A stretch of 64,000 nt of DNA from Sulfurovum sp. (GTDB lineage Bacteria; Campylobacterota; Campylobacteria; Campylobacterales; Sulfurovaceae): positions 8,345 through 72,344 of the forward strand of contig JALSUP010000064.1 of assembly GCA_027071315.1 (NCBI GenBank). The letters run 5' to 3'. Numbering within the stretch: the first letter of the stretch is position 1; the number at the start of each line of letters is the position of its first letter. The notes under the pieces were generated by a model. The model saw nothing but the letters and a program-made list of their open reading frames with translations. It had not been told where the DNA came from and did not search any database. The translations under genes and the position numbers were made by a program. Below are positions 13,418 to 24,123 of this stretch, one piece after another.

Positions 13418-14085
13418 TGAAGATACTGCGATTCTTCCTGGCACTGATTAAGTGGCTGTTGATCTTAGCTTTTTTGGGGCTTTTGTCCATCTTTCTGCTT
13501 GATCTGTATATGGGTTATACAGCGAAAGAGAAGATCTACACAGATGTTTCCAAAGTTCCGCACCGTAAAGCAGCTCTTTTGCTCGGCACAGCAAAATATG
13601 TGGCAAAAGGGAAGAAAAATTACTTTTATGTCTACCGTATTCGTGCGGCTGTCGCTTTATGGAAAGCAGGCAAAGTAGGTGCCATTCTGGTCTCAGGAGA
13701 CAATGGCAGTAAATACTACAATGAAACCATACGCATGGAAAATGACCTCATAAAAGCAGGGGTGCCTAAAAAATACATTGCGACAGACTATGCAGGTTTC
13801 AGAACCCTGGACTCCATTGTCAGGGCAGAAGCACTTTTTGACCTCAAAGAGTATATAATCGTCTCTCAAAGATTCCATCTGGAGAGGGCACTTTTTATTG
13901 CCAGAGCAAAAGGACAGAAAGATGTCATCGGCTTTGCAGCAAAAGAGATGAAAGGTACAAAAGCAGCACGAAAAATGGCCTTTCGAGAGTATCTGGCAAG
14001 AGTGAAAGCCTTTTTGGATGTCTATATTTTAAATACACAACCTAAATTTTATGGTGAGAAAGTGAAAGTGAATTATCGGAAATGA
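13417..14085 (+). CDS. sanA: SanA/YdcF (DUF218) family membrane-anchored protein
   Basis: N-terminal TM helix. LLLGTAKY...ILVSGDNGSKYYNE...IVSQRFHLERALFIA is typical of the SanA/DUF218 family. The last roughly 22 codons are compositionally island-like. Confidence 0.7.
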   Translation: MKILRFFLALIKWLLILAFLGLLSIFLLDLYMGYTAKEKIYTDVSKVPHRKAALLLGTAKYVAKGKKNYFYVYRIRAAVALWKAGKVGAILVSGDNGSKYYNETIRMENDLIKAGVPKKYIATDYAGFRTLDSIVRAEALFDLKEYIIVSQRFHLERALFIARAKGQKDVIGFAAKEMKGTKAARKMAFREYLARVKAFLDVYILNTQPKFYGEKVKVNYRK

Positions 14086-22050: not shown

Positions 22051-24123
22051 ATGATAAAAAAAGAATTAGCACGTATAGAAAAAGAAAAGAAACGACTGGA
22101 AGAACAGTTACAACCATATGTAGAATCGATACAAAAAACAATAGAACAAACTAAGCCAACTATAGAATCTGCGCAAAAGACTATTGAATCATATAAAAAA
22201 GAAATAGAAAGACTCAAACAATGGGCAGCTGCCTATTATGTCGATGACAACCCCATCGCCACAGACGAAGAGTACGACAAACTCTACCATGAAGTGTTGG
22301 ACTATGAGACGGTACATCCTGCTGATACCGTCGAAGACTCTCCTACCAAGCGTGTGGGTGGTGTGGTACGTGATGAGTTTAGCAAAGCGAAGCACATCAA
22401 GCGTATGTGGAGTATGGAAGATGTTTTTAGTCCCGAAGAAGTGCAGGAGTGGCTGGACAGGGTTGAGAAAAATGTAGGAAAGTGTGACTACTTTTGTGAA
22501 CCTAAGTTTGACGGGGCCAGTATGAACCTGCTCTATGAAGAGGGCAAGCTCATACGTGCCATTACCCGTGGGGATGGTGTGATTGGAGAAGAGGTAACGG
22601 ACAATGTACGTACCATACGTTCTGTACCGCTTGCCATAGACTATGAGGGGCTGATAGAGATACGTGGAGAAGTGGTCATCCGCAAAGATGATTTTGAAAT
22701 CATCAATAAAGAGCGTCTTGATGAGGGAGAAGCACCTTTTGCAAACCCGCGTAATGCCGCAGCGGGGAGCCTCAGACAGCTAGACTCAGCGGTGACTGCC
22801 AAAAGACGCTTGGTCTTTTACCCCTGGGGGCTAGGAGAGAATAGTTTAACCCAAAGCCGACTCTCGGACAAGATGGACTTTGTGTATAATCAGGGCTTTC
22901 TCAAACCACCGTACGTAAAAGAGTGTAATACCATAGAAGAGATAGAAGACTTTTACCTCTTCCTCATCAGCAAACGAGATGAAATCCCTATGATGATGGA
23001 CGGAATGGTCATCAAGGTTGATGATGTACATCTGCAAGAGGACTTGGGCTACACAGTCAAAGTACCCAAGTGGATGTGTGCCTACAAATTCCCGGCAGTG
23101 GAAAAAGTCACCAAGGTGAATGCCATTACCATACAGGTGGGGAGAACAGGGGTACTTACTCCCGTAGCAGAGGTAGAACCAGTAGAAGTTGAAGGTGCCA
23201 TGATAGCCCGTGCTACCCTGCATAACTTCGATGAGATAGAACGAAAAGGGCTGATGATAGGTGACTCTGTCATCCTCATACGCTCAGGTGATGTGATCCC
23301 GAAGATCACCAAAGTGCTTACCGACAGACGCGATGGCTCTGAAATCCCAATAGAGAGACCTACTGAGTGTCCCACCTGTCACTCTGAAGTGCTCGATGAG
23401 GGGACACTCATCAAGTGTCAAAATCTTGACTGCCCGGACAGGGTGGTGAACTCCATCATCCACTTTGCCAAAAAAGGGTGTATGAATATTGACGGTTTGG
23501 GTGCAAAGATCGTTGAAATACTTGTTAAAGAGAAAAAAATAAAAGATATTTTAGGCTTGTATCATTTAAAATTTGAAGACCTTGAAGGGTTAGAGGGCTT
23601 TAAAGAGAAGCGTATACAGAAATTGCTAGATGCCATTAACGCGACTAAAGGTGTCCCTCTTTACCGCCTGTTGAATGCGATGGGTATAGAGCATATTGGA
23701 GAGGTGGCCAGTAAGTCTTTAGCCCTGGAGTTCGGACTCTCTGTGGTAGATGTGACCTTTGAACAGGTGGTGGCCATAGACGGTATAGGTGAAGAGATGG
23801 CAAATTCACTTTTGGAGTTTATGAGAGTCAACCATGACTTTGTTTTAAAACTGTTCGATGAGATCGAACCTACGGTGGAAGAGAAGATCGAAGCGGTTGA
23901 AAATCCTTTTAAAGATAAAACGGTGGTTTTGACCGGGTCAATGTCCGTAAGCCGCGGGATCATCAAAGAGATGCTTGAAAAACTGGGTGCCAAGGTGAGT
24001 GGTTCTGTCTCCAAGAAAACAGACTTTTTAGTCTACGGTGAAGAGGCAGGGTCAAAACTGACAAAAGCTGAGAGTCTGGGTGTGACCACTCTGACTGAAG
24101 ATGAAATGAGAGGAATGTTATGA
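22051..24123 (+). CDS. ligA: NAD+-dependent DNA ligase (ORF includes an unusual ~45-aa N-terminal extension; true start uncertain)
   Basis: [22 protein letters not shown], adenylation motif CEPKFDGAS, Zn finger CPTCHSEV...CQNLDCP, HhH region and C-terminal BRCT (KTVVLTGS). Confidence 0.9.
22126..22209 (+). repeat. four tandem degenerate 21-nt (7-aa) units inside the 5' end of the ligA ORF
   Basis: The units tcgatacaaaaaacaatagaa / caaactaagccaactatagaa / tctgcgcaaaagactattgaa / tcatataaaaaagaaatagaa encode [28 protein letters not shown]. Confidence 0.7.

Follow-up and report, generated by a model that had tools for sequence, protein, structure and literature searches.

A YeeA-YeeB-YeeC-type, restriction-modification-like cluster with two putative cargo genes in Sulfurovum sp.

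In 2009, Morgan et al. described a second set of MmeI homologues, which have no PD-ExK motif, depart from MmeI over their first ~100 residues and "invariably" have a YeeB-like DEAD helicase and a YeeC-like GIY-YIG protein as neighbours; no endonuclease activity was seen for two of them, YeeA and MslORFHP from Moraxella (PMC2731913). In B. subtilis, YeeA (DnmA) methylates GACGAG and this methylation affects promoter activity (PMC7261158, PMC9973331), and in Vibrio crassostreae yeeAB confers resistance to one group of phages (bioRxiv 10.1101/2021.05.05.442762). We found neither a newer name nor a mechanism for the YeeABC system in the literature. Here we analysed a stretch of 64,000 nucleotides (nt) from Sulfurovum sp. 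(assembly GCA_027071315.1, contig JALSUP010000064.1, positions 8,345 to 72,344 of the forward strand), hereafter the window, which contains a block of six open reading frames (ORFs), all on the + strand, at 14082-22050. As far as its sequence tells, this block is a member of the DnmA(YeeA)-YeeB-YeeC cluster, with three components encoded by four ORFs, plus two cargo genes. We propose, with a probability of about 0.75, that the locus is a composite in which a YeeABC layer would act as a Type I-like restriction-modification (RM) system and the embedded two-gene cargo layer as an abortive-infection backup.

A first-pass annotation of the window had taken the six ORFs for one system with six components that fitted nothing named; four of them are in fact the cluster described in 2009. 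Its comparison with the yeeA-yeeB-yeeC neighbourhood of B. subtilis was the right lead, as gene order and a nuclease-less methyltransferase (MTase) match the published definition, and its idea of an MTase that marks self DNA while a helicase and a GIY-YIG nuclease restrict in trans is the hypothesis published for the cluster (PMC2731913). The exact coordinates, the overlaps and the single sizeable gap were confirmed when we re-read the sequence (Table 1). The junctions, which were read directly, consist of ATGA overlaps at 14082 and 16739, a 2-nt gap at 17290/17293, an 8-nt overlap at 20872 and a TAA-ATG junction at 21150/21151.

Comparison of the locus with described systems

All sequence-level features of the YeeA-YeeB-YeeC cluster that we tested were found at the locus. 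An MmeI-family MTase devoid of PD-ExK is followed on the same strand by a superfamily 2 (SF2) helicase of the DEAD/DExH type and a T5orf172/GIY-YIG-like protein. The absence of a second MTase, the low G+C content relative to the host and the horizontal spread are also shared. Compared with the B. subtilis cluster, the window locus differs in that YeeC is split, that two cargo genes lie between the MTase and helicase genes and that no recombinase or toxin-antitoxin genes are adjacent, the block being placed within a housekeeping operon, between sanA and ligA. The split YeeC, the cargo gene encoding a transmembrane (TM) protein with an immunoglobulin-like (Ig-like) domain and the operon-embedded location are lineage features of the window locus.

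Table 1. Features of the six-ORF block, in positions of the window
Feature	Positions	Strand	Length	Basis
MTase of the YeeA/DnmA type, MmeI-family N6-adenine	14082..16742	+	886 aa	MmeI Pfam domains
Cargo gene 1, membrane-anchored protein	16739..17290	+	183 aa	hydrophobic helix and Ig-like model
Cargo gene 2, SLFN_AlbA_2 + GHKL ATPase ("Schlatpase")	17293..18762	+	489 aa	Pfam domains
Non-coding spacer before the helicase gene	18763..18953	.	191 nt	stops in all three frames
YeeB-type SF2 (DExH) helicase, presumed translocase	18954..20879	+	641 aa	Pfam, motifs
YeeC-type N-terminal domain as its own polypeptide	20872..21150	+	92 aa	collinear alignment with fused proteins
YeeC-type middle and T5orf172 (GIY-YIG-like) domains, presumed nuclease	21151..22050	+	299 aa	Pfam T5orf172

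With MmeI (Type IIL/IIG, structure 5hr4) the window MTase shares the helicase-spacer, gamma-class N6-adenine MTase, target recognition (TRD) and C-terminal domains, and probably also the methylation of one strand of an asymmetric site. It differs from MmeI in its first ~80 residues, which are unrelated, and in that cleavage would presumably be carried out by separate helicase and nuclease proteins. The Type ISP enzymes LlaGI and LlaBIII likewise combine a nuclease, an SF2 helicase, a gamma-class adenine MTase and a TRD and modify their asymmetric site on one strand, but they do so in a single polypeptide with an Mrr nuclease, whereas the window encodes three or four proteins with a T5orf172 nuclease.

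Type I RM operons with accessory genes (EcoprrI with PrrC; Ronin, HsdMS with RonA; hsd operons with rlo, RhuM, Fic, ApeA or AlbA_2) have a toxin-like slot as well. In both cases the slot splits the methylation and recognition module from the ATP-dependent helicase-nuclease module, and the cargo families RhuM, Fic, AlbA_2+GHKL and ApeA are shared with YeeABC loci. In contrast to Type I RM, the window has neither HsdS nor HsdR, specificity lying inside the MTase polypeptide, and its nuclease is T5orf172/GIY-YIG-like instead of a PD-(D/E)XK domain fused to the motor. Profile searches agree with the first-pass annotation that components of BREX, DISARM and HsdR/HsdS are lacking: Methylase_S, HSDR_N and HsdM_N had no Pfam match in the six proteins, and the five proteins other than the MTase had no PADLOC match to BREX or DISARM components. 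A likeness to the "Hma" class, suggested at the same time, was not supported, as no Hma-named PADLOC model matched any of the six proteins at E<=0.01, assuming that the library holds such models.

The predicted restriction-modification components

To survey the cluster, we carried out a scan with one genome per species, which found a helicase relative in at least 594 species, and we sampled the best 80 loci, all from different species and with helicases 61-86% identical to that of the window. They belong to Campylobacterota, Bacteroidota, Planctomycetota, Bacillota, Actinomycetota, Chlamydiota, the candidate phyla radiation (CPR), Vibrio and Moraxella. An MmeI-like MTase gene is present upstream of the helicase gene and on the same strand in 67 of the 80 loci, the other 13 having less than 2.4 kb of upstream sequence, and a yeeC gene follows in all 76 loci with downstream sequence, with a junction that never exceeds 100 nt. 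The co-occurrence of six families, which the first-pass annotation had put forward as a check, was found in part: the order MTase-helicase-YeeC is kept in 67 of the 80 loci, but the TM and AlbA_2 genes are not constant.

The helicase has more than 8000 close relatives in the database and 2258 clusters at 50% identity; it occurs on 265 plasmids, 120 of which are conjugative, and is essentially absent from phages. The copy on a Bacillus plasmid is annotated by NCBI as DNA methyltransferase, DEAD/DEAH box helicase and GIY-YIG nuclease family protein. In the triad of the Bacillus sp. plasmid pBTBD59S1 the helicase is 69% identical to that of the window, and in two Bacillus loci of the sample (L082 and L098) it is 62% and 61% identical. 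We also observed two loci, L006 (8005-12076) and L007 (1-3451), with a helicase and a fused YeeC and no MTase, in which a 35-aa remnant of the MTase N-terminus (71% identity) lies beside a gene with an ORF6N domain. These are either decayed systems or restriction modules without a modification partner.

The domain calls made in the first pass for the MTase, AlbA_2/HATPase, helicase and T5orf172 proteins are borne out by Pfam profile searches. For the MTase, the assignment to the MmeI family holds, but the protein has the full five-domain architecture, not the MTase part alone, and is without the nuclease motif. Indeed, the families MmeI_N, MmeI_hel, MmeI_Mtase, MmeI_TRD and MmeI_C were matched with E-values down to 2.6e-108, MmeI_N covering residues 1-158, and the motifs FDPACGSGNFL and NPPY are present. 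Residues 82-880 align with the MmeI structure 5hr4 (629 bits) and residues 1-81 remain unaligned. In 55 complete homologues, the first 80 residues contain a conserved basic motif, LLLAYG-PKASITRLKKG ... GE-L-KKKLFFK, and no conserved D...(D/E)xK; the N-terminus of the window MTase has no counterpart of the MmeI nuclease motif D70-x9-E80-x-K82 (D-x9-ExK). The best PADLOC model was REase_MTase_IIG (1030 bits, full length), the matches to MTase_I being weak and local and those to PglX and DrmMI weak or partial. The TRD is only 29-49% identical to those of relatives as against 58-85% for the remaining MTase domains, a pattern expected of diversifying specificity in an active RM system. Going by its intact motifs and by its homologues MmeI and B. 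subtilis DnmA, for which methylation is established, the enzyme would methylate adenine at an asymmetric site.

The helicase matches the Pfam families DEAD, ResIII and Helicase_C. Its motifs I, II, III and VI (GKS 48-50, DEFHH 156-160, T188 and Q367/G370/R371/R374) are invariant in an alignment of 22 sequences, and it is 61-94% identical to homologues across many phyla. When we compared the window with a Sulfurovum metagenome-assembled genome (MAG) that carries the system at the same site (L005), the helicase was 83% identical and the flanking genes 58-84% (holB 58%, sanA 68%, folP 69%, hobA 72%, ligA 84%). More generally, identity of the helicase is 83-90% with relatives whose flanking housekeeping genes reach 58-84%. 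Such a gap suggests that the helicase is very strongly constrained or was recently exchanged. A sequence search of the helicase and the T5orf172 protein against solved structures found nothing. For the helicase, AlphaFold2 gave a model of low quality (mean predicted local distance difference test score, pLDDT, 65; predicted template modelling score, pTM, 0.41), and its Foldseek matches were generic SF2 helicases, including EcoR124I HsdR, with template modelling scores of ~0.2-0.3; neither was used as evidence.

The 92-aa protein had been described as an adaptor. It is instead the N-terminal domain of YeeC, which a stop-start junction separates from the rest of that protein, since the joined 92-aa and 299-aa products are collinear with single proteins of 384 aa (L005) and 393 aa (L006), with 66% and 63% identity. 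The same TAA-ATG split is found in L001-L004 and L008, a set that includes an Aliarcobacter island and the nearest relative from a metagenome. In the other species, YeeC is fused in at least 71 of the 76 loci and the clean TAA-ATG split occurs in none of the 76. A crude flag for a split YeeC, raised on five of these loci, was rejected on inspection: three have no stop around the junction and two are frameshifted. Both halves are intact in lineages in which the T5orf172 part is down to 63% identity, which counts against simple decay and for selection on both halves. The natural split of YeeC marks a domain boundary.

In the 299-aa protein, the Pfam families T5orf172 (8.6e-16) and MUG113 were detected. 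At the positions G167, Y170, L172, K189, G191, R200, E232, H236 and E260-W-F, 72-74 of 74 species agree, as do 67 at N203, and the window protein has all of these residues. The 92-aa protein matched no Pfam family; a two-sequence comparison with the C-terminus of the helicase gave a weak similarity (E 0.011), on which we did not rely. We also noticed that the 92-aa protein (20890-20928, LNNIFESDPLGLL) and the 299-aa protein (21169-21207, LDDILNSDTFGIL) both carry a short motif at the N-terminus, [LI]-[DN]-[DN]-I-[LF]-x-S-D-x-[LF]-G-[LI]-L. With the strict pattern, two copies were found in 30 of the 76 loci and one copy in 30 others. The TAA-ATG split lies directly 5' of the second copy, so that the motif opens each YeeC polypeptide; it may be a docking peptide.

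The variable slot, its cargo and the setting of the locus

The distance between the MTase and helicase genes is at most 158 nt in 38 of the 67 loci with both genes and 0.5-6 kb in the other 29. ORFs of at least 100 aa in this slot were called mechanically (n=53). They include RhuM (8), AlbA_2+HATPase_c_4 (7), Fic/SoFic (3), PDDEXK_3 (2) and PIN (2), and single cases of HamA with a helicase, YhcG, Abi_C, XisH/XisI, DUF488, M78+HTH (helix-turn-helix) and HigB. AlbA_2+HATPase_c_4 is the second commonest cargo (7 of 29 occupied slots). The first-pass view of the TM and AlbA_2 proteins as fixed members of the system does not survive this survey, in which 38 of 67 loci have nothing in the slot and most of the remaining ones have other genes there. 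Judging from gene content, both genes are interchangeable cargo in the one variable slot of the cluster. The slot is restricted to the MTase-helicase junction, which places the window cargo between modification and restriction genes, in the position of an RM guard, and the 191-nt spacer marks the border between the cargo slot and the restriction module. No PrrC-named model was among the PADLOC matches of the six proteins.

The content of the slot changes even among close relatives. In L005, at the same site as in the window (hobA-holB-folP-sanA / system / ligA), it is a single Fic-HTH gene, and YeeC is fused. An integrative island of Aliarcobacter (L001) has genes for 416-aa and 774-aa proteins without an assigned family. 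In Sulfurospirillum (L010), downstream of an integrase, the slot contains SIR2, DUF87, TM and Fic genes, and in Sulfurimonas (L012), between housekeeping genes, ApeA, TM and RhuM genes. The metagenome contig L101 carries genes for a NACHT-like protein of 1584 aa and a protein of 290 aa, followed by the TM gene, a 33-aa ORF and RhuM.

A single slot which collects accessory families of Type I RM is, to our knowledge, seemingly undescribed in the literature on the cluster; it is a modest extension of a known principle. A 2023 synteny survey of the YeeABC cluster noted the neighbours merely as "uncharacterized". ApeA, RhuM and Fic were noted earlier inside RM operons, ApeA specifically in epsilonproteobacteria (PMC3710099).

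The 183-aa TM protein belongs to no Pfam, NCBIfam or PADLOC family and is matched by phrog_9607 (2.8e-8). Its 83 homologues are almost only from Campylobacterota, those with a name being from Sulfurimonas, Sulfurospirillum and, as the most distant, Geovibrio; no homologue was found in the 80 species loci. Most homologues have 260-279 aa, with an extra C-terminal domain. The idea that the 183-aa protein is a truncated 274-aa form was rejected; it is a natural variant, because short forms recur at 48-80% identity. An AlphaFold2 model (pLDDT 82) has a long N-terminal helix with a hydrophobic stretch, an Ig-like sandwich and a C-terminal helix. The TM gene is in the slot in seven of the nine places examined (the window, L008, L009, L010, L011, L012 and L101) and elsewhere in L013 and L100; wherever it is in the slot, it comes right before the final cargo gene (AlbA_2, Fic or RhuM). 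In three related loci, L008 (1233-1337), L009 (1210-1314) and L101 (9804-9905), a micro-ORF of 33-34 aa separates the TM gene from the cargo gene that follows. It is absent in the window, where the AlbA_2 gene begins 2 nt after the TM gene.

The 489-aa protein consists of SLFN_AlbA_2 (PF04326, residues 16-137) and HATPase_c_4 (PF13749, residues 321-405). The residues E16, E21, K23, E306, N310 and G374-S-G376 vary little or not at all among 30 homologues. Two homologues, 77% and 65% identical, stand alone between housekeeping genes (L014 and L015), with no TM partner, and Type I operons of the order HsdM-HsdS-AlbA_2-HsdR (L017 and L018) hold an embedded homologue, one of them 54% identical. Judged by these contexts, the AlbA_2/GHKL gene is autonomous.

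Prokaryotic Schlafen/AlbA_2 domains are tRNA endonucleases, with E17 and D22 as catalytic residues in CbCash; the SLFN+GHKL "Schlatpase" is a common supradomain whose active nuclease assembles through ATP binding, and more than half of the defence-associated Schlafen homologues adjoin RM systems or other nucleases (PMC13462974; bioRxiv 10.64898/2026.05.29.728809). By spacing and position, and not by alignment, E16 and E21 of the window protein would correspond to E17 and D22 of CbCash. The protein has the same two domains as the Schlatpases, with the invariant E-x4-E-x-K and the N-box and G-box residues of GHKL, and according to the preprint this family is mostly made of small proteins of this kind with a C-terminal HTH. 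It differs from SLFN-pAgo and Cash in having no Argonaute, Csx15 or NACHT sensor domain, and the system to which it is linked here is of the YeeABC type and not a Type I RM, BREX or CRISPR locus. By homology to SLFN-pAgo and Cash, it is probably an ATP-dependent, tRNA-cleaving abortive-infection effector.

When compared with a 552-aa protein of L008 (1334-2992), the window AlbA_2 protein agrees by eye at about two-thirds of the first ~150 positions (SLFN) but is only 40% identical over residues 1-405; the pair has the look of a mosaic, one SLFN domain being joined to different GHKL/C-terminal halves. We ruled out that the 191-nt gap is the remnant of an AlbA_2 gene truncated from the 552-aa length seen in L008, because the family normally has 484-490 aa and the gap has no coding similarity.

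The first-pass annotation was right that the block is AT-rich: its G+C content (14082-22050) is 0.337 compared with 0.432 in the remainder of the window, of which it is the lowest-G+C 8-kb stretch in 64 kb. The minimum within it, 0.28, is in the TRD segment and the membrane-protein gene. A second local dip (0.324) was seen in the composition profile at 27000-27499, 3' of the island. The Pfam search identified the flanking genes as DUF218 (SanA-like) and NAD-dependent ligase, and the gene string hobA-holB-folP-sanA / island / ligA is a housekeeping setting in Sulfurovum-like Campylobacterota. There is no tRNA gene in the window, and no direct repeats flank the block. An Rfam search of 13000-23000 gave chance-level matches only, and a scan for promoters and terminators found no more sites than in shuffled sequence. 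The ligase ORF has a 42-aa N-terminal extension (22051-22180) that is absent from LigA of L005 and L008. Its sole in-frame start is the ATG at 22051, directly after the T5orf172 stop. The extension has the look of a coiled coil, with an imperfect internal repeat (QKTIEQ / QKTIES), and may be a recombination footprint at the right edge of the island.

Two-layer model, alternatives and significance

In the composite that we favour, layer 1 (14082-16742 and 18954-22050) would be a Type I-like RM system. The MTase would read an asymmetric site through its own TRD and methylate adenine, which would mark self DNA. Following Morgan et al., its non-nuclease N-terminal domain would bring in the SF2 helicase and the T5orf172/GIY-YIG-like nuclease, and these would translocate along the DNA from unmethylated sites and cut it; the nuclease protein would in this lineage be made as polypeptides of 92 aa and 299 aa. 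Since enzymes of the MmeI family methylate one strand, cleavage would probably depend on a pair of sites or on a collision, as is the case for Type ISP and Type III systems. Layer 2 (cargo genes, 16739-18762) would be a backup, firing when the restriction layer is inhibited or overrun. This role is suggested by analogy with EcoprrI, which holds PrrC, and with Ronin, where the small membrane protein RonA is held by HsdMS and freed by anti-restriction proteins. The earlier proposal that the AlbA_2/HATPase and TM proteins form a second layer fits the evidence, although the cargo genes could equally be independent passengers.

One may go further and imagine that the slot is a dedicated docking site for anti-anti-restriction guards. 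The TM-Ig protein and the Schlafen/GHKL tRNase would then be a two-part guard, held by the YeeA complex and firing upon phage inhibition through tRNA cleavage and/or membrane damage. We hold this version only tentatively and consider it rather unlikely. If true, decoy immunity of the PrrC/Ronin type would reach beyond Type I to another RM family, and the orphan TM-Ig family would gain a function.

Several points weigh against the composite reading. The function of layer 1 is a prediction from sequence, the likeness to B. subtilis YeeB and YeeC is one of domains and gene order and not of direct alignment, and the guard model is drawn from position and analogy. The function of the TM protein cannot be deduced from its model, because the structural matches are generic (in Foldseek, archaeal pilins, FlaF and SoxYZ, with scores of 0.2-0.3). 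Loss of the nuclease from the MTase N-terminal domain is inferred and not proven, since a pattern with PD-(D/E)XK-like spacing, T-D94-x7-D102-x-K104 (residues 93-104; 14358-14393), is retained, with 70-90% conservation across 55 YeeA-like MTases; in the alignment with MmeI it falls on D115...D123, which is not the catalytic motif published for that enzyme. The split of YeeC could be a step toward decay. Finally, the experimental record is conflicting, with defence in Vibrio and none in B. subtilis, where the cluster neither restricted plasmid transformation nor protected against three phages, and the authors called it a relic; B. subtilis YeeB and YeeC were reported to be without C-terminal stretches (PMC7261158, PMC9973331).

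The strongest alternative is that the cluster is an inactive relic in which only the MTase works, as an orphan epigenetic regulator, as proposed for DnmA. Besides the phenotypes of B. subtilis dnmA-yeeB-yeeC and the effect of DnmA on promoter activity, the stop codon that interrupts yeeC in the window and the location of the block inside a housekeeping operon, with no mobility genes, are in keeping with it. We nevertheless consider it unlikely: all ORFs are intact with conserved catalytic-type residues, and the split is a clean TAA-ATG junction that was retained in lineages where identity of the T5orf172 part is down to 63%. YeeB and YeeC of B. subtilis have 599 and 382 residues; by these lengths, the window helicase (641 aa) and the joined YeeC (391 aa) would keep the C-terminal stretches that are missing there. 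The intact helicase and T5orf172 motifs, the divergent TRD, a helicase more conserved than the flanking essential genes and the protective effect of the Vibrio yeeAB homologue argue that the cluster is active here.

That all six genes form one obligate defence system, with the TM and AlbA_2/HATPase proteins as integral sensor or regulator subunits, appears very unlikely to us. The ORFs are co-directional and tightly packed, the TM gene is in the slot in seven of nine places, and the order TM, AlbA_2, helicase, small ORF, T5orf172 recurs in L008 and L009; these two are not independent support because they are of the same close lineage (helicases 87-90% identical). Against such a system stand the slots that are empty (38 of 67) or in most other cases filled by unrelated genes, the Fic-HTH gene of the Sulfurovum relative at the same site, the solo AlbA_2 homologues (65-77% identity) without a TM partner and the absence of a TM homologue from the 80 species loci.

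We give very little credit to the possibility that the AlbA_2/HATPase protein is a C-protein-like regulator of the downstream restriction genes and not an effector. Its gene is directly upstream of the sole sizeable non-coding gap and the helicase gene, and some sources name its homologues "predicted HTH transcriptional regulator"; but the slot also holds toxin and effector families (RhuM, Fic, PIN, HamA, PD-(D/E)XK), E16, E21 and K23 of the SLFN domain are invariant and related SLFN domains are proven tRNases, and most YeeABC loci manage without such a gene. A self-sufficient Type IIG/IIL enzyme like MmeI, with the helicase and T5orf172 genes as unrelated neighbours, is scarcely tenable for the 886-aa protein in spite of its full-length PADLOC hit, its MmeI_N match at 1-158 and the NCBI name "type IIL restriction-modification enzyme MmeI" of one plasmid homologue, since its first 81 residues do not align with MmeI and have no conserved D-x9-ExK, YeeA and MslORFHP lack endonuclease activity (PMC2731913) and helicase and YeeC are linked to it in 67 of the 80 species loci.

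Although the YeeABC cluster is present in at least 594 species and on 265 plasmids, no mechanism has been established for it, and its MTase currently carries the labels of a Type IIG model in PADLOC and, for one plasmid homologue, of MmeI at NCBI. The window locus is a clean example in which all catalytic-type residues are intact. That the slot gathers cargo families also found in Type I RM operons (RhuM, Fic, Schlafen-GHKL, ApeA) supports the Type I-like reading of the cluster, and the slot is a defined place in which to seek RM-linked backup effectors, including stand-alone Schlafen-GHKL proteins.

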